From positions 2,709 to 66,708 of the forward strand of contig LBOM01000005.1 in assembly GCA_000989515.1 (NCBI GenBank): a stretch of DNA of 64,000 nucleotides. The letters run 5' to 3'. Positions 14,399 to 22,117 of this stretch are shown here, one piece after another. The DNA comes from Candidatus Nomurabacteria bacterium GW2011_GWE1_32_28. GTDB taxonomy: Bacteria > Patescibacteriota > Minisyncoccia > Phycocordibacterales > UBA9973. The notes under the pieces are model-generated. The model saw only the letters and a list, made by a program, of their open reading frames with translations. It ran no database searches and was not told the origin of the DNA. A program made the translations under genes and the position numbers. Position 1 is the first letter of the stretch; each line of letters opens with the position of its first letter.

Positions 14399-15091
14399 AT
14401 GTCTAAAAAAGGAAAACTAATAGTAATAGATGGAACAGACGGAAGTGGAAAAGCAACACAGGTTGAGCTTTTAGCTAAAAGATTAAAAAAAGAAGGCAAG
14501 ACAGTTAAAATAATAGATTTTCCTGATTATTATTCTAATTTCTTTGGTAAATTTATTGGGCATTGTCTAACAGAACAATATTATAATTTTGTTAAAGTTC
14601 ATCCTAAAATAGCTTCAGTCTTGTATGCAGCAGATAGATTTGAATCAAAAATAAAAACAGAAGATTGGCTTAAGAGAGGGTATATAGTAATAGCAAATAG
14701 ATATGTTTCTGCAAACCAGATTCATCAAGGTGGTAAGATAGCTAATATAAAAAAAAGACAAGCTTTTATTAAATGGCTAGATGAAATGGAATATAAAGTT
14801 TTTAAAATTCCAAGGCCAAATGTTGTAATTTATCTAAATCTTTCTATCCCTTTTATATTAAGTCTTATAAAAGAAAGAAATAAAAAGAGTAATCGTTCTT
14901 ATGTTGGTAAAAAGAAAGATATTGTAGAAGGTGATATAAAATATCTTACAAATTCTCAAAAGAGCGCTGTTTGGTTAGCAAAAACACAATCAGAATTCGT
15001 GCAAATAAAATGTGTAAATAAAAATATATTACGAACTAGAGAAGATATTCATGAAGAAGTTTATGAAAAAGTTAAAAAAATTACTAGATAA
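14399..15091 (+). CDS. tmk: Thymidylate kinase
   Basis: P-loop IVIDGTDGSGKATQ, DRF motif YAADRFES, NRY motif. Confidence 0.75.
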   Translation: MSKKGKLIVIDGTDGSGKATQVELLAKRLKKEGKTVKIIDFPDYYSNFFGKFIGHCLTEQYYNFVKVHPKIASVLYAADRFESKIKTEDWLKRGYIVIANRYVSANQIHQGGKIANIKKRQAFIKWLDEMEYKVFKIPRPNVVIYLNLSIPFILSLIKERNKKSNRSYVGKKKDIVEGDIKYLTNSQKSAVWLAKTQSEFVQIKCVNKNILRTREDIHEEVYEKVKKITR

Positions 15092-15103
15092 TTTAATAAA
15101 TAT

Positions 15104-15436
15104 ATGGAATTAAAAGAATATCAAAAAAAAGCATTATTAACAGCATTTCATCCAGAAAAATATAAAATTATTTATCCAGCCTTAGGGCTTGGCAACGAAT
15201 CTGGAGAAGTAATGGGGAAGATAAAAAAATGGTTGCGTGGTGATGATAATGGAGAGACCATGAGCGAAGACAGGAAAGAAGCAATAAAAGGAGAATTGGG
15301 TGATGTGTTGTGGTATTTAGCAGTATTGGCTCACGATTTAGATCTATCTCTTGAAGATATTGCTAAATATAATTTAGATAAATTGCAATTGAGAAAAGAA
15401 AGAGGAACGTTAAAAGGCGATGGAGATACAAGATAG
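15104..15436 (+). CDS. MazG-like nucleoside triphosphate pyrophosphohydrolase (small single-domain form)
   Basis: E-x2-E-x12-LGDVLWYLAxLA pattern typical of MazG/HisE-fold NTP-PPases, 110 aa. Confidence 0.5.
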   Translation: MELKEYQKKALLTAFHPEKYKIIYPALGLGNESGEVMGKIKKWLRGDDNGETMSEDRKEAIKGELGDVLWYLAVLAHDLDLSLEDIAKYNLDKLQLRKERGTLKGDGDTR

Positions 15437-17198
15437 AATAATTATGAAAGAGAAAATAGAAAATTTAATAAAAAATTCTTTAAAAGAATTTGATATAGAG
15501 ACTAACAATATTTTTTTAGAACATCCTGCAGATATAAAGATGGGAGATTATTCTACGAATGTAGCGATGGTTCTTGCTAAAGAAAATAAAACTAGTCCTA
15601 AAGAATTGGCGGAAAAGATAGCTGGAGAAATAAATAAAATGATCGCTATTTCTCTAGATTTAAGGTTGGATGTTGATAGAGTAGAGGCAAAAAATGGATT
15701 TATTAATTTTTATTTGTCTAAGAATTTTTTGATTGATTCTATTAAAGAAATTTTAGAAAATAAAAATTTTGGGAAAAATAATTATTTTGATGGTAAGAAG
15801 GTAATGATTGAATACACAGATCCAAATCCTTTTAAGCCTTTTCATATTGGACATTTGATGAGTAATGCAATAGGAGAATCTATTTCTCGTATTTTTGAAT
15901 TTTCTGGAGCAAAGGTAGTTCGTGCAAATTATCAAGGAGATGTCGGTCCTCATGTAGCAAAAGCTGTTTATCAAATGTTGGAAAATATAGATGATACAAA
16001 ATCTCTAATGATGGATAATGTTTCTTTGACTGAAAAGATTAATTATATTGGAAGTTCTTATTCAAAAGGAAATGATGTTTATGAAAATAAAGAAGAGTGT
16101 AAAAAAGAAATTGATGAAATAAATAAAAAAATTTACGAAAGAAGTGATAAAAAAATAAATGAGATTTATGATTGGGGAAGAGTTCTTACACTGGAAGCAT
16201 TTGAAGAGATTTATAAAAAATTAGGTACTAATTTTAATTATTATTTTTTTGAAAGTATAGTAGCGCCTATCGGTCTTAAGATAGTACACGAAAATTGTGA
16301 TGAAAATAAGTCTGATAATATTTTTGAGAAGAGTGATGGAGCAATAGTTTTTCATGCAGAAAAATATGATTCAAGGCTTCACACAAGAGTTTTTATTAAT
16401 TCTAAGGGTTTGCCTACATATGAGACTAAGGAGCTGGGGCTTACTCAAATGAAATTTGAAAAAGAAAAATTAGATTTATCTGTTGTAATAACAGCAAATG
16501 AACAAGAAGAATATATGAAAGTTGTCAGTAAGGCATTAGAAATAATAAATCCAGGTATTGTTCATAAGATGAAACATATAGTGCATGGCATGATGCGTCT
16601 TTCTTCTGGAAAGATGTCTTCTCGAAAGGGTAATGTTATAACAGGAGAGTCTCTGATAATAGAATCTTGTGATAAAATTTTAGAAAAAATAAAAGATAGA
16701 GATTTTACAGATGAAGAAAAAAAACAAATAAGTAATGATGTCGGTGTGGCCGCGCTTAAATATTCTATTTTAAGACAAGATATTAGTGGAAATATTATTT
16801 ATGACGCAGATAAATCTATTTCATTTGAAGGAGATTCTGGGCCATATTTACAATATTCATATGCTAGAGCTTTCTCTATTTTAGAAAAAGCTAAAGTAGA
16901 AAATATTTTACCAAGTTTTGTATTTTCAGAGATTGATGTTAATGTTTTTGAAATAGAAAAATTATTATATAGGTTTCCTGAAATAGTATTACGTGGAGCA
17001 CAAGAATTTGAGCCACATTATATTGCAAATTATTTAGTAGATATTGCTCGTGCGTTTAATGCTTTTTATGGGAATAATAAAATTATAGACAAAGATGATT
17101 CAATGTCGTCTTATAAAGTAGCTCTTACATTAGCTTTTTCTTATGTTATTAAAAATGGACTTTATCTATTGGGAATTAAGTCCCCCGAAAGAATGTAG
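15420..17198 (+). CDS. argS: Arginyl-tRNA synthetase
   Basis: Class I HIGH motif PFHIGHLMS, ArgRS N-terminal add-1-like domain, C-terminal DALR anticodon-binding region, 592 aa. Confidence 0.85.
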   Translation: MEIQDRIIMKEKIENLIKNSLKEFDIETNNIFLEHPADIKMGDYSTNVAMVLAKENKTSPKELAEKIAGEINKMIAISLDLRLDVDRVEAKNGFINFYLSKNFLIDSIKEILENKNFGKNNYFDGKKVMIEYTDPNPFKPFHIGHLMSNAIGESISRIFEFSGAKVVRANYQGDVGPHVAKAVYQMLENIDDTKSLMMDNVSLTEKINYIGSSYSKGNDVYENKEECKKEIDEINKKIYERSDKKINEIYDWGRVLTLEAFEEIYKKLGTNFNYYFFESIVAPIGLKIVHENCDENKSDNIFEKSDGAIVFHAEKYDSRLHTRVFINSKGLPTYETKELGLTQMKFEKEKLDLSVVITANEQEEYMKVVSKALEIINPGIVHKMKHIVHGMMRLSSGKMSSRKGNVITGESLIIESCDKILEKIKDRDFTDEEKKQISNDVGVAALKYSILRQDISGNIIYDADKSISFEGDSGPYLQYSYARAFSILEKAKVENILPSFVFSEIDVNVFEIEKLLYRFPEIVLRGAQEFEPHYIANYLVDIARAFNAFYGNNKIIDKDDSMSSYKVALTLAFSYVIKNGLYLLGIKSPERM

Positions 17199-17233: not shown

Positions 17234-20200
17234 ATGGATAAAGATATAAGTAAATCAGAAGCAGCGCTTCGAGAAGAGGCTGTTTTAGAATTTTGGAAAG
17301 AAAGTAAGATTTTTCAAAAGTCTCTAGAAAAAGAAGCACCAAAAGGTGAATTTATTTTTTATGAAGGTCCACCAACTGCAAATGGTAAACCTGGAATTCA
17401 TCATCTTGAAGCAAGAGCATTTAAAGATGCGATACCTAGATATAAAACAATGCGAGGGTATCATGTTCGCAGAAAAGGCGGATGGGATACACATGGTTTG
17501 CCTGTGGAGCTTCAGGTAGAAAAGAAACTAAATTTAGATTCAAAAATTGCAATTGAAAAATATGGAATTGCAAAGTTTAATCAAGGTTGCAAAGAAAGTG
17601 TTTGGGAATATACAGATCTTTGGAGTAAATTTACAGAACGTATTGGTTATTTTGTTGATCAAGAAAATGCTTATGTAACATATCATAATTCTTATATCGA
17701 GTCTGTCTGGGGTGTTCTTAAAAAAATAGATGAACAAAATTTACTTTATAAAGATTATAAAGTCGTACCTTGGTGTCCAAGATGTGGTACAGTTCTTTCT
17801 TCTCATGAGCTTGCTCAAGGATATGAAGATGTAAAAGATTTATCAGTGACAGTAAAATTTAAAATAAAAGGACAAGAAAATACTTATATTCTCGCTTGGA
17901 CGACGACACCTTGGACATTGCCTGGAAATGTTGCTTTGGCAGTAGGAGAGAAGATTGATTATGTAAAAGTTAGTTTAAATGGAGTTTTTTTAATTTTAGC
18001 AAAAGCACGTTTATCTATAATAGAAGGAGAATTTAAAATAATAGAAGAGATTAAAGGTAAAGACTTAATTGGATTAGAATATGAACCACTCTATCCTTTT
18101 TTAAAAGATACAATTTCTGAGAGCGAAAAACCTAAATTAAATAAAGCTTTTAAGATTTATGGAGCAGATTTTGTGACGACAGAAGATGGTACAGGTGTAG
18201 TACACACTGCTGTCATGTATGGACAAGATGATTTTGTATTGGGTACAGAGATTGGGTTACCAAAACATCATTTAGTTGGTCTTGATGGTGTCTTTTTAAA
18301 GGGTACAGGATTTCTAGAAGGTAGATTTGTTAAAGACGAAGAAGTTGCTATTGATATTATTAAAGATTTGGCGAATCGTTCAACTGATCCACTTTTATTT
18401 AAAAAAGAAAAATATGAGCACTCGTATCCTCATTGTTGGCGTTGTAAAACAGCTCTTATATATTATGCTCGTGACTCTTGGTATATCAAAATGTCTGATA
18501 AAAAAATAAAGGATAAAATGATACAAGAAAATAAAAGTATAAATTGGGAACCATCTCATATTCGTGATGGACGTTTTGGTGAATGGTTAAAAGATATTAA
18601 AGATTGGGCAATTTCTCGTGAACGTTATTGGGGGACACCTCTTCCTGTTTGGGAATGTGTTTCTTGTAAAAAAAGAGAAGTTCTTGGAAGTTTAGACGAA
18701 ATAAAAGAAAGAACAAAAAAATCTGGAAATAAATATTTTGTAATGAGACACGGTCAAGCAGAAAGTAATTTAAAAAATACAATAAGTTCTAAAGTTGAAG
18801 ATGTTGATCATTTAACTGAAAAAGGGAAAAAACAAGTTTTTGATTCTTTGTCTGAGTTAAAAAATAAAAAAATTGATTTTATAATCTCTTCTGATTTTAT
18901 GAGAACAAAAGAAACAGCAGAGATTATAAAAAAAGGACTAGGGATTTCTAATAATAATTTAATTTTTGATAAAAGAATTTGGGAATTATCTGCTGGGATA
19001 TTTGATGGTAATACATGGGATAATTTTTGGGAAGTCCGTGAGAACGGAGAAGGTTATTTTTACAAACCAGAGGGTGGTGAATCACACAAAGATCTCAAGT
19101 TGAGAGTTATTAGTTTTTTATATGATTTAGAAAAAAAATACAAAGATAAGAATATTTTAATCATAACTCATGAAGGACCAGCACGTCTTCTTATTGCTGG
19201 GTTAAAAGGTTTTAATGATATTAATACTATAGAATATTTAAAAGATAATATTGTAAAATTTGATAATGCTGAAATTAAAGAACTAGACTTTGTTTCTATT
19301 CCACATAATGAGAGTTATGAGCTTGATTTACATAGACCATATATTGATGATATAGAAATTGAATGTGAATGTGGTGGAGATCTAATAAGAACAAAAGAAG
19401 TCATGGATGTTTGGTTTGATTCTGGTGCGATGCCTTTTGCTCAAGATCATTATCCGTTTGAAAACAAAGAATGGGTAGATAAAAAAGGTTATCCTGCAGA
19501 TTTTATCTCTGAGGCAATAGATCAGACTCGTGGATGGTTTTATACATTACACGCTGTTGGTGTATTGATGGGACGTGGTAAGGCCTATAAAAACGTTATA
19601 TGTTTAGGTCATTTACTTGATTCAAAGGGTAAAAAGATGTCTAAATCTCTTGGTAACATTGTAGATCCTTGGTCTATGATCGAAAAATATGGAGTAGATA
19701 CATTGCGACTTTGGATGTATTCTGTAAATCAGCCTGGTGAATCAAAGAATTTTGATGAAAAAACCGTTATAGAACTTCATAGACAAGTTTTTGGTTTACT
19801 TTATAATGTTTTAGCTTTTTACGAACTTTATAGAGATATACAACTAGAAACTATTGAGTATAAAAAGTCAGAAAATATTTTAGATAAATGGATTTTAGCT
19901 AGACTTGATGAGTTAATAGATTTTACGACTAAACATCTAGATGATTATAAATTACTTGAACCGACTAGGGCGATAAGAGATTTTATTGGAGATCTTTCTA
20001 CCTGGTATTTGCGTCGCTCAAGAGATAGGATAAAAGATGGAGACAAAGAAGCAAAGCAGACCTTATATTTTGTTTTAAAAAATCTTTCAAAGATAATGGC
20101 ACCATTTACACCTTTTGCCGCTGATGATATATGGTTAAAACTTAAAAATGAAAAAGACATAGAAAGTATTCATTTAGCAGAATGGCCCAAATCATCAAAA

Positions 20201-20716
20201 ACAGTTTTTGATATTTTTAGTAATGGTAAAAATAAAATTTTAGAAGAAATGAAAAAAGTTCGTGAGATTGTTACATTAGGATTTGAAGCTCGACAAAAAG
20301 CAGGTATAAAGGTTCGTCAACCATTAGCGAAGATTCAAATCAAAAATCATACTCTTGATAAAGAGTATGATGAATTAATAAAAGATGAATTAAATATAAA
20401 AGAAATAAAAGAAAATAAAAATATTGAAAGAGGTGTTCTGCTTGATATAGAGATTACAGAAGAATTAAAAGAAGAAGGATGCTATCGTGAATTTGTAAGA
20501 AGCGTGCAGGATATGCGAAAAAATATTGGTCTTACTCCCAGCGATGTTATCTCTCTTTTTATTGAAACGAATGATAAAGGTAAAAAATTAATTCAAAAGT
20601 TTGAGATTGATTTACTTAAAGTAGTTCTAGCCTTAAAAGTAGAATTTAAAGAAAATGAAGGGGAATCTTTAGAGATTGATGAGTTAGTGTTTAAAATTCA
20701 AATAGAAAAAAGATAA
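17234..20716 (+). CDS. ileS: Isoleucyl-tRNA synthetase with an inserted ~195-aa histidine-phosphatase (PGAM/SixA-like) domain
   Basis: PTANGKPGIHHL (HIGH), WISRERYWGTPLP, KMSKS (KMSKSLGN), Zn-knuckle ECECGG; the insertion carries the RHGQAESN and ITHEGPARLL motifs. Confidence 0.9.
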   Translation: MDKDISKSEAALREEAVLEFWKESKIFQKSLEKEAPKGEFIFYEGPPTANGKPGIHHLEARAFKDAIPRYKTMRGYHVRRKGGWDTHGLPVELQVEKKLNLDSKIAIEKYGIAKFNQGCKESVWEYTDLWSKFTERIGYFVDQENAYVTYHNSYIESVWGVLKKIDEQNLLYKDYKVVPWCPRCGTVLSSHELAQGYEDVKDLSVTVKFKIKGQENTYILAWTTTPWTLPGNVALAVGEKIDYVKVSLNGVFLILAKARLSIIEGEFKIIEEIKGKDLIGLEYEPLYPFLKDTISESEKPKLNKAFKIYGADFVTTEDGTGVVHTAVMYGQDDFVLGTEIGLPKHHLVGLDGVFLKGTGFLEGRFVKDEEVAIDIIKDLANRSTDPLLFKKEKYEHSYPHCWRCKTALIYYARDSWYIKMSDKKIKDKMIQENKSINWEPSHIRDGRFGEWLKDIKDWAISRERYWGTPLPVWECVSCKKREVLGSLDEIKERTKKSGNKYFVMRHGQAESNLKNTISSKVEDVDHLTEKGKKQVFDSLSELKNKKIDFIISSDFMRTKETAEIIKKGLGISNNNLIFDKRIWELSAGIFDGNTWDNFWEVRENGEGYFYKPEGGESHKDLKLRVISFLYDLEKKYKDKNILIITHEGPARLLIAGLKGFNDINTIEYLKDNIVKFDNAEIKELDFVSIPHNESYELDLHRPYIDDIEIECECGGDLIRTKEVMDVWFDSGAMPFAQDHYPFENKEWVDKKGYPADFISEAIDQTRGWFYTLHAVGVLMGRGKAYKNVICLGHLLDSKGKKMSKSLGNIVDPWSMIEKYGVDTLRLWMYSVNQPGESKNFDEKTVIELHRQVFGLLYNVLAFYELYRDIQLETIEYKKSENILDKWILARLDELIDFTTKHLDDYKLLEPTRAIRDFIGDLSTWYLRRSRDRIKDGDKEAKQTLYFVLKNLSKIMAPFTPFAADDIWLKLKNEKDIESIHLAEWPKSSKTVFDIFSNGKNKILEEMKKVREIVTLGFEARQKAGIKVRQPLAKIQIKNHTLDKEYDELIKDELNIKEIKENKNIERGVLLDIEITEELKEEGCYREFVRSVQDMRKNIGLTPSDVISLFIETNDKGKKLIQKFEIDLLKVVLALKVEFKENEGESLEIDELVFKIQIEKR

Positions 20717-21538: not shown

Positions 21539-22117
21539 ATGCACCATATTTATCACACAGAGGGAATAATATTGAGTAGTGGAGACCTCAAGGAAACAGC
21601 TAAATATTATTCTATTTTTACTCGTGATTTGGGAGTTATTTTTGCTTCTGCTCAAGGTGTACGAAAAATGTCTTCAAAATTACGTTTTGTTTTACAAGAT
21701 TTTTCTTATATAAAAATTGATTTAGTAAAAGGGAAAGATTTTTGGAGAGTTACAAGTGCTTCAAAGACAAATAAGCTTGAAGAATTATCTAAACCAGAAA
21801 TTTTTCAAGTTTTTGTAAATATTTTAAGACTTTTGAAACGTTTGCTTGCTGGAGAAGATCCAAATGAGGGTTTGTTTGTTGATTTGTTGAATGGATTGTA
21901 TATTTTAGAAAAATCTAAAACAGAAGAAGAATTACGAAACATCGAAGCTGTTATTGTTTTACGTATCCTTAATAATTTAGGATATATTGGTGGTAATGAA
22001 ATTTTGAAAGATTTTATTAAGTCACCATTTGAAGAAGATTTGATATTTAAAATTTCTAAAAATAGAGTAAAAATATTACATCAGATAAATAAGGCAATAA
22101 AAGAGACAGATTTATAA
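21539..22117 (+). CDS. recO: DNA repair protein RecO (short form)
   Basis: N-terminal OB-fold pattern EGIILSSGDLKETAKYYSIFTRDLGVIFASAQGVRK...RFVLQDFSYIKIDL typical of RecO. Confidence 0.55.
   Translation: MHHIYHTEGIILSSGDLKETAKYYSIFTRDLGVIFASAQGVRKMSSKLRFVLQDFSYIKIDLVKGKDFWRVTSASKTNKLEELSKPEIFQVFVNILRLLKRLLAGEDPNEGLFVDLLNGLYILEKSKTEEELRNIEAVIVLRILNNLGYIGGNEILKDFIKSPFEEDLIFKISKNRVKILHQINKAIKETDL

Follow-up and report, generated by a model that had tools for sequence, protein, structure and literature searches.

The isoleucyl-tRNA synthetase (IleRS) gene ileS of Candidatus Nomurabacteria bacterium GW2011_GWE1_32_28 encodes, between the two halves of the zinc knuckle in its CP3 domain, an entire histidine phosphatase domain. 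The gene lies in the window analyzed here, a stretch of 64,000 nucleotides of contig LBOM01000005.1 (GenBank assembly GCA_000989515.1, positions 2,709 to 66,708 of the forward strand) whose first letter is position 1 in all window coordinates below. The inserted domain is very probably a real, selected and active phosphatase that is functionally tied to the synthetase. The identity of both parts, the intact reading frame, the invariance of the catalytic residues, the alternation between operon partner and insertion in related bacteria, and the recurrence of the association elsewhere are observed directly. The insert appears to descend from a small phosphatase that Paceibacteria-type Patescibacteria keep as a dedicated partner of their class Ia synthetases. 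In the Nomurabacteria lineage its whole coding sequence has come to lie inside ileS, so that each synthetase molecule carries one phosphatase.

The host protein is a complete type-2 enzyme (IleRS2). The original prediction, made on the letters of the window, had proposed a 1160-residue IleRS with about 195 extra residues between the halves of the zinc knuckle, and both points are confirmed. A single open reading frame (ORF) of that length runs on the forward strand (17234-20716), and its product scores 857.5 bits against the ileS equivalog model TIGR00392 (cut-off 621.4), with the match falling into two stretches on either side of the insert (NCBIfam). Pfam likewise places tRNA-synt_1 in two halves around His_Phos_1, followed by Anticodon_1 (residues 884-1033) and the type-2 C-terminal DUF5915 (1030-1159). 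The protein is 100% identical to the entry P0087, named Isoleucine-tRNA ligase of the same bacterium. In a phmmer comparison with the PDB, Priestia megaterium IleRS2 (8c8w) is matched over its residues 10-476 by residues 10-492 of the window protein and over its residues 479-856 by residues 690-1067, and the C-terminal part also matches 8c8w residues 936-1019. About 197 residues are thus inserted between two adjacent positions of 8c8w, between the cysteine pairs C475/C478 and C711/C713 and almost without linker.

The extra residues belong to the histidine phosphatase superfamily, as had been proposed. In the whole protein, PF00300 (His_Phos_1, gathering score 21.7) matches residues 502-661 with 94.0 bits (E 1.2e-26), and translation of 18737-19324 alone raises the match to 98.9 bits (E 3.9e-28), which identifies a branch-1 domain. 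Modeled alone by AlphaFold2, residues 495-700 yield a confident fold, with a predicted local distance difference test (pLDDT) of 94.5 and a predicted template-modeling score (pTM) of 0.91. Foldseek searches with this model returned 299 PDB chains at E <= 0.001, with a probability of 1.00 and a template-modeling (TM) score of 0.77 to PspA (4ij5/4ij6). The best matches (4ij6/4ij5, 6s2q, 3dcy, 9mmh, 1h2e) and the families recovered comprise PspA (25-26% identity), mycobacterial glucosyl-3-phosphoglycerate phosphatase (GpgP), TIGAR, a riboflavin-pathway histidine phosphatase (HFP), PhoE and CobC.

Both catalytic motifs on which the original prediction relied, RHG and the second catalytic-histidine region ITHEGP, were located, at residues 505-507 and around H646, respectively. 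Among 78 aligned orthologs, R505, H506, R557 and H646 have no exception and the proposed proton donor E584 is replaced once, by aspartate (Table 1); N512 is kept in 77. This near-invariance contrasts with a mean pairwise identity of 0.41 for the insert, against 0.69-0.70 for the synthetase body, and the region that follows E584 (approximately residues 588-615) is poorly conserved within the phosphatase family. A fixed catalytic core in a domain that otherwise drifts is what is usually seen in enzymes under selection for catalysis. The insert is a genuine histidine phosphatase domain, whose catalytic competence we infer from conservation, and the earlier suggestion that it is competent gains support from these six essentially invariant positions.

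Where the domain belongs within its superfamily can be narrowed by comparison with curated models. The label PGAM/SixA-like given in the original prediction is right for the superfamily; it does not hold for SixA or for true phosphoglycerate mutases, the insert being closer to PhoE/PspA/CobC-type enzymes, and no equivalog cut-off is reached. Taken alone, the insert scores 23.7 bits against cofactor-dependent phosphoglycerate mutase (TIGR01258, cut-off 81.7), 75.0 against its archaeal counterpart (NF038349, cut-off 225), 78.9 against alpha-ribazole phosphatase CobC (TIGR03162, cut-off 162.9), and 34.3 against phosphohistidine phosphatase SixA (TIGR00249, cut-off 74.5), the last match being limited to the N-terminal 71 residues. 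Metal-independent phosphoserine phosphatase PspA, although the best structural match, is missed with 52.4 bits against 350 (NF045917), and the curated cut-off for GpmB is missed likewise. Judged by these profiles, the insert is a small branch-1 histidine phosphatase, PhoE/PspA/CobC-like, that falls outside all curated specificity families and is no mutase.

The synthetase part of the protein also looks functional. WFDSG is present in its C-terminal part, as is KMSKS (residues 801-805, window positions 19634-19648, checked in the translation); the CP1 editing domain (residues 196-400) matches isolated IleRS editing-domain structures (1wk8, 1wny), and the editing motifs WTTTPWTL and GTGVVH are seen in the translation of the N-terminal part. 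The class I signature has the non-canonical form GIHH, which is at least 90% conserved in an alignment of 84 sequences (A1). Signatures of the G/AXHH type work in IleRS2, and the swap raises the Ki of mupirocin up to 1000-fold, conferring hyper-resistance (PMC10485003). Domain names used here follow the Candida and yeast IleRS structures (PMC7191050, PMC7955072). CP3 of Thermus thermophilus IleRS carries a zinc motif (PMC7191050), and all four knuckle cysteines are found in 62 of the 78 orthologs; the other 16 lack cysteine at every one of the four positions, which indicates that zinc binding is dispensable once the phosphatase domain is nested there.

A frameshift or an assembly chimera, the artifacts that might have produced such a protein, can be excluded, on the joint evidence of intact ORFs in relatives, repeated records and smooth base composition. 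In a scan of one genome per species, 139 stretches encode a relative, and 80 loci were kept in which the match covers the whole query, insert and flanks. The same insertion is found in related genomes: in 77 of these 80 loci, a single uninterrupted ORF contains both RHG and KMSKS (593-1392 residues, the shorter ones ending at a contig edge). The titles of the 80 loci name Nomurabacteria, Paceibacterota, Minisyncoccia, the Patescibacteria group or 'uncultured Candidatus Saccharibacteria'. A protein identical to that of the window is recorded on 11 contigs from several archives, and the 120 best full-length homologs listed (65-80% identical, 1138-1355 residues) all carry PF00133 together with PF00300. 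Base composition across the insert is smooth, with no break, and a search of the flanks for repeats that might represent a mobile-element footprint found only chance ones rich in AT.

The closest relatives of the domain outside IleRS are free-standing proteins of about 190 residues (P0018-P0039). Their alignment to the insert runs from their own residue four to their last, with NNKYYILRHG... facing GNKYFVMRHG... at one end and ...GELRKL facing ...AEIKELDF at the other. This end-to-end correspondence indicates that a whole coding sequence, minus its start and stop, has been nested. When these free-standing proteins served as the query in a metagenome scan, 80 loci were obtained, with the domain embedded in IleRS in 36 and free-standing in 44. 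In 37 of the latter, the free-standing copy is located directly upstream of an ileS gene without insert and on the same strand; of the remaining copies, four end at a contig edge and three are exceptions. The stop-to-stop spacing of the phosphatase and ileS frames ranges from -153 to +18 nucleotides in 36 cases and is 715 nucleotides in one, so that the frames usually overlap, and direct reading of two loci, L096 and L117, showed stop/start overlaps of the ATGA type. One free-standing copy next to ileS (P0036, L088:3877-4452) has serine in place of the second catalytic histidine (ILIISSEGP) and may be inactive.

The order argS - (phosphatase) - ileS - recO is kept in most of these 80 metagenome loci, and the window agrees with them in synteny. 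Where the phosphatase gene is free-standing, in sister lineages, it occupies the space between argS and ileS, and recO follows ileS in the embedded and free-standing states alike. The IleRS bodies of lineages with a phosphatase neighbor have diverged to about 40% identity. Thus the phosphatase is a dedicated neighbor of ileS across these lineages.

How often the free-standing and embedded states interchanged was examined with trees of the IleRS body (neighbor-joining, 100 bootstraps, 931 columns), on which parsimony requires five to eight changes between the two states, never fewer than five. The tree of the phosphatase domain itself gives 4-12 state changes, against approximately 32 for shuffled labels, and does not split into two clean clades. 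The exact number of changes is soft, because these are distance trees, yet they do not agree with one clean event. It is less likely that the domain was inserted once and that a duplicated copy was then lost differentially; against this stand the lack of two clean clades in the domain tree, a neighbor-joining tree only, and the finding that none of the loci examined has both a free-standing and an embedded copy.

The association is not limited to the CP3 site. When the insert was searched without a profile against 1.84 billion cluster representatives, there were 41 matches at E <= 1e-30. Class Ia synthetase sequence is present in 99 of the best 150 representatives and 47 consist of the phosphatase alone, the other four being a C-terminal fusion to ArgRS, a fusion to TsaC (Sua5/YrdC) and two proteins with short unassigned N-terminal extensions; no partner outside the tRNA field was found among these 150. 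With flanks mapped onto the window protein and numbered accordingly, the IleRS insertions fall at three sites, A, B and C (Table 1), and some proteins combine B and C or A and C, sometimes with two or three copies per chain. Four copies, in tandem or interspersed, are present in a ValRS-like protein, which among family models matches those for valine-tRNA ligase best. In the multi-copy ValRS-like and IleRS entries (P0209, L082:366-3851; P0272; P0274, L081:1932-6191; P0349; P0340), the catalytic set is intact in every complete copy.

In-frame fusion of a phosphatase to the C-terminus of ArgRS was found in two independent places (L103:6375-8561 and P0335, L171:6001-8070). At the second, recO directly follows the fusion and ileS is not adjacent. 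Fusions to TsaC form four clusters with 52-65% identity (P0236, L170:977-2140; P0352-P0354). In Patescibacteria, TsaC, the threonylcarbamoyl-AMP synthase, has other C-terminal fusion partners as well (P0355-P0467), namely an Ogt-like DNA-binding domain, which is the commonest, 2H cyclic phosphodiesterase, NUDIX, TruB, methylpurine glycosylase and GNAT. Taken together, these lineages have a history of obligatory co-expression of the phosphatase with ileS and of repeated, independent covalent joining to class Ia synthetases.

A second phosphohydrolase is associated with some of these enzymes. In eight of 77 related loci, the IleRS that bears the phosphatase continues at its C-terminus into an HD domain (L012:7933-8577, L027:7951-8598, L003:7966-8607 and five others), and in six of 77 a separate HD ORF starts at the end of ileS (L013:8093-8755, L075:8073-8720, L078:3566-4219, L042, L032 and L022). 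One synthetase can therefore carry two different phosphohydrolases, to judge from the predicted domains. All 14 HD domains match Pfam HD and HD_3, 10 of them match YfbR-like, and their best solved relative is human HDDC2 (E 0.005), which may point weakly to the 5'-nucleotidase clade of HD_3/YfbR/HDDC2-like proteins. The window itself lacks an HD gene of this kind.

Table 1. Features of the ileS locus and of the phosphatase insertion sites. Residues are those of the window protein.
Feature	Residues	Window position	Strand	Basis or occurrence
Complete type-2 isoleucyl-tRNA synthetase gene with nested phosphatase	1160 aa	17234..20716	+	Single ORF; TIGR00392; Pfam
IleRS N-terminal part: first Rossmann half, CP core, CP1 editing, CP2, first CP3 half	1-494	17234..18715	+	8c8w 10-476
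Non-canonical class I signature, GXHH replacing HXGH	G54-I55-H56-H57	17393..17404	+	Translation GIHH
CP3 zinc knuckle, first half (WECVSC)	C475-V-S-C478	18656..18667	+	Translation CVSC
Inserted histidine phosphatase domain, ~195 aa	~495-689	18716..19300	+	Gap in PDB alignment; PF00300
RHG motif, R505 and nucleophile H506	505-507	18746..18754	+	R and H in 78/78 orthologs
Second phosphate-binding arginine (MRTKET)	R557	18902..18904	+	78/78 orthologs
Proposed proton-donor glutamate	E584	18983..18985	+	77/78 orthologs, one Asp
Second catalytic histidine (ITHEGP)	H646	19169..19171	+	78/78 orthologs
IleRS C-terminal part: rest of CP3, second Rossmann half, stem-contact fold, anticodon-binding domain, type-2 C-terminal domain		19301..20716	+	8c8w alignment
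CP3 zinc knuckle, second half (ECECGG)	C711-E-C713	19364..19372	+	Translation CEC
IleRS insertion site A, CP3 knuckle	495/692			~190 proteins
IleRS insertion site B, after HYPFEN	~745/754			
IleRS insertion site C, before anticodon-binding domain	~869/877			
Arginyl-tRNA synthetase gene, conserved upstream neighbor		15420..17198	+	Pfam Arg_tRNA_synt_N, tRNA-synt_1d, DALR_1
RecO-like gene, conserved downstream marker		21539..22117	+	Pfam RecO_N

The window is rich in AT, with approximately 29% G+C around ileS. Upstream, at 14399-17198 and on the ileS strand, genes for a thymidylate/deoxynucleoside kinase (Tmk), a MazG-like pyrophosphohydrolase and ArgRS precede ileS, the MazG-like gene overlapping the start of argS by 17 nucleotides. 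By its predicted products, this segment is a tightly packed housekeeping block of nucleotide house-cleaning and tRNA-charging genes. Directly downstream of ileS, the small ORF at 20801-21277 matches the central Cas2-like domain of PaaX and Pfam CRISPR_Cas2 (E 1e-5); no other CRISPR-related features were noticed in the annotated parts of the window. ARAGORN found no tRNA or tmRNA genes in the 64-kb window.

What the phosphatase does for the synthetase can be approached through its partners. It may act at or beside the synthetase on something that the synthetase binds, most plausibly a phosphomonoester of the nucleotide type. That the substrate is of a nucleotide or tRNA-end kind is a tentative assignment, to which we give a little less than even weight, and the full statement, which couples this substrate class to an active phosphatase tied to the synthetase, is put forward just as tentatively. 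The substrate might be an adenine-type nucleotide in free form, either bound at the adenylate site or departing from it, or a tRNA that a phosphate at its 3' (2') end makes unfit for charging. In the proposed reaction the phosphate would pass to H506, giving a phospho-histidine intermediate, with E584 as proton donor to the leaving group, and a ligand usable in aminoacylation would be restored.

Several observations favor a substrate of this kind. All partners of the phosphatase bind ATP, make adenylates or handle tRNA; the associated HD hydrolase looks nucleotidase-like; the neighborhood is rich in nucleotide house-cleaning genes (Tmk, MazG); and CP3 adjoins the CCA pocket. TsaC of the same bacteria, with its fusions to NUDIX and 2H cyclic phosphodiesterase domains, has been counted towards the same nucleotide theme. 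Toxins of the toxSAS group pyrophosphorylate the CCA end of tRNA and are countered by HD-type hydrolases, and blocked tRNA ends are thus a real biological problem. As for geometry, the element preceding CP3 is the CP2-3 linker, and in the yeast enzyme this linker forms part of the lining of the tRNA CCA/reveromycin pocket (PMC7955072).

A number of findings weigh against this assignment. No curated phosphatase family cut-off is met by the insert, and its nearest solved structures (PspA, GpgP, TIGAR, HFP, PhoE and CobC) are all small-molecule phosphatases acting on sugar or amino-acid phosphates. The alignments reveal no extra conserved basic patch for RNA binding, the conserved positions being those of the generic catalytic core. 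The isoelectric point was considered as a sign of RNA binding and is not decisive: the window insert, at 6.3, is not basic, and the median of 10.0 for the free-standing forms is little higher than the 9.2 of the local background. At sites B and C, or fused to the C-terminus of ArgRS, the phosphatase need not lie near the tRNA 3' end, and such varied positions argue against a strict geometric requirement. The TsaC fusions are weak evidence, because TsaC joins many unrelated domains. A distant free-standing homolog (P0045, L086:1891-2427 and L087:2418-2954) lies about 800 nucleotides from a 2H cyclic phosphodiesterase/LigT-like gene, with a NUDIX gene near; a general link between phosphatase and 2H phosphodiesterase genes was rejected, since the arrangement is confined to these two near-identical contigs and does not recur in the other 169 loci. 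Finally, the full-length AlphaFold model has a pTM of 0.42 and a pLDDT below 50 in the Rossmann core; its confident parts are limited to the insert and the editing domain, and it does not place the two active sites relative to each other.

A more specific version of the proposal is built-in repair or immunity, in which the phosphatase, placed at the mouth of the synthetic site, would strip phosphates that block aminoacylation. Its targets would be the 3'-phosphate or pyrophosphate that RNases or toxSAS-type toxins leave on the CCA end, or the phosphate that Hip-type kinases attach to the KMSKS loop, and the HD-domain hydrolase fused to or beside the same IleRS would assist in some lineages. 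This version is rather improbable as it stands. If true, it would represent the first synthetase to repair its own substrate or itself by dephosphorylation, and one that evolved repeatedly in episymbiotic Patescibacteria.

The most serious competing explanation is that the domain is a metabolic hitch-hiker, an ordinary small-molecule phosphatase of central or salvage metabolism that was encoded by chance in the argS-ileS operon and gained from its fusion no more than co-expression or stability. It would act on phosphoserine, phosphoglycerate-type, sugar-phosphate or riboflavin-pathway compounds and would be unconnected in mechanism with aminoacylation. We regard this explanation as unlikely, yet as deserving weight. 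The closest structures listed above are those of metabolite phosphatases, and free-standing homologs are named PhoE or probable phosphoglycerate mutase in the source databases. Fusion of neighboring genes is common in reduced genomes, and the joining of the phosphatase to ArgRS and of the HD domain to IleRS has the look of simple read-through; the scattered fusion sites suggest, moreover, that precise geometry is unimportant. However, simple loss of a stop codon cannot turn an upstream gene into an internal insertion, and yet insertions are found at three IleRS sites and in a ValRS-like protein, with at least five state changes. The partners seen among the 150 closest representatives are only class Ia synthetases and TsaC, and a single metabolic step would hardly call for two to four intact copies in one synthetase. 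In addition, the poor conservation of approximately residues 588-615 after E584 is unlike that of substrate-specific metabolic enzymes, and the scores against the dPGM, CobC and PspA equivalogs are all far under their cut-offs.

Another reading, less probable than the preceding one and than built-in repair, is that the phosphatase removes a product, hydrolyzing the pyrophosphate (or AMP) released by adenylate-forming enzymes and thereby pulling amino-acid activation forward locally. IleRS, ValRS-like proteins, ArgRS and TsaC all make an acyl-adenylate and release pyrophosphate and then AMP; several copies per synthetase would be sensible for a product sink, and a diffusible substrate would explain the variable fusion site. 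To our knowledge, however, branch-1 histidine phosphatases are phosphomonoesterases or mutases, and we know of no pyrophosphatase among them. The usual route for recycling AMP is adenylate kinase, and the TsaC fusions are promiscuous.

The phosphatase might instead act on protein, dephosphorylating the synthetase itself, for example at a serine of the KMSKS loop, and so counter a kinase of the HipA/HipT type or a native regulatory kinase. SixA, PGAM5 and Sts are protein phosphatases of the superfamily, and HipA and HipT inactivate class I synthetases by phosphorylation of a KMSKS-type loop. Sites A, B and C surround the second Rossmann half and KMSKS (residues 801-805), and in the yeast enzyme one pocket is lined by both KMSKS and the CP2-3 linker (PMC7955072). 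On the other side, no kinase gene was noticed in the neighborhood gene tables, although no search aimed at kinases was made; TsaC has no KMSKS loop, and the similarity to SixA is weak (34 bits against 74.5). This reading is speculative, and slightly less probable still than product removal. A non-catalytic module, serving as a platform for tRNA or a partner or as a sensor of phospho-metabolites, is the least credible of all: nested class Ia domains such as CP1 and the INS element (10.64898/2026.02.03.703510) often handle tRNA and P0036 has serine for its second catalytic histidine, but the six catalytic positions are near-invariant across the 78 embedded copies and all complete extra copies of a domain that is otherwise only about 41% identical.

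Returning to the proposal of an active phosphatase tied to the synthetase, its interest lies in the setting. Aminoacyl-tRNA synthetases are among the best-studied enzymes, and their known nested domains serve editing or tRNA handling. Both parts of the window protein come from well-known families, and public pipelines record both Pfam domains on these proteins. The NCBI label on most named homologs is 'class I tRNA ligase family protein', not IleRS, which leaves room for improved annotation. A search of the available literature library found no paper describing a histidine phosphatase in or next to a synthetase, and in a 2026 preprint on the domain architecture of 96,219 IleRS the words phosphatase and Patescibacteria are absent (10.64898/2026.02.03.703510). 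An apparently active phosphomonoesterase is tied repeatedly to class Ia synthetases in a large uncultured bacterial branch, as an operon partner gene, at three IleRS sites, in multi-copy ValRS-like arrays and in ArgRS and TsaC fusions. Such recurrent ties point to an unrecognized phosphate-removing step linked to tRNA charging. The substrate could be a tRNA end that is damaged or has been modified by a toxin, a nucleotide that acts as an inhibitor, a product of the reaction or the phosphorylated synthetase, and whichever applies, the system is directly testable with recombinant protein. It also offers a natural example of a whole enzyme in a zinc-knuckle loop, of which nested and free-standing forms can be compared.

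Among known systems, the small alarmone hydrolases that reverse toxSAS modification and the HD domain of the bacterial CCA-adding enzyme are functional analogies only, through phosphate removal from the tRNA 3' end. They are metal enzymes of the HD superfamily acting in trans, whereas the window encodes a predicted metal-independent histidine phosphatase inside a synthetase. Rv2228c-type RNase H/CobC-like acid phosphatase (NF005567) likewise joins a branch-1 phosphatase to a nucleic-acid enzyme; there, however, the fusion is end to end, in contrast with the internal insertion described here, and the insert, matched by the phosphatase half with 59-61 bits, is far under the cut-off of 326. A precedent for an extra enzymatic domain on IleRS exists in the curated exception model for IleRS with an N-acetyltransferase (NF040702, ileS_w_GNAT), in which the added domain is a different one; the window protein, scoring 319 bits against a cut-off of 1999, is no member. 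With PspA (4IJ5), PhoE (1H2E), CobC, GpgP (4PZ9) and HFP (9MMH), the insert shares its fold (TM 0.68-0.77), its size of about 190-210 residues and the catalytic set of RHG, asparagine, second arginine, glutamate and second histidine. It is only 20-27% identical to them and, instead of being a free enzyme, is nested in or operon-coupled to a synthetase. The synthetase, in turn, resembles the bacterial IleRS2 enzymes of Priestia megaterium (8C8U-8C9D; E 5e-248 for 8c8w) and Thermus thermophilus (1ILE) in family and domain order, and shares the GXHH variant described for many IleRS2. It differs from them by approximately 195 extra residues, a complete enzyme domain at the tip of CP3.

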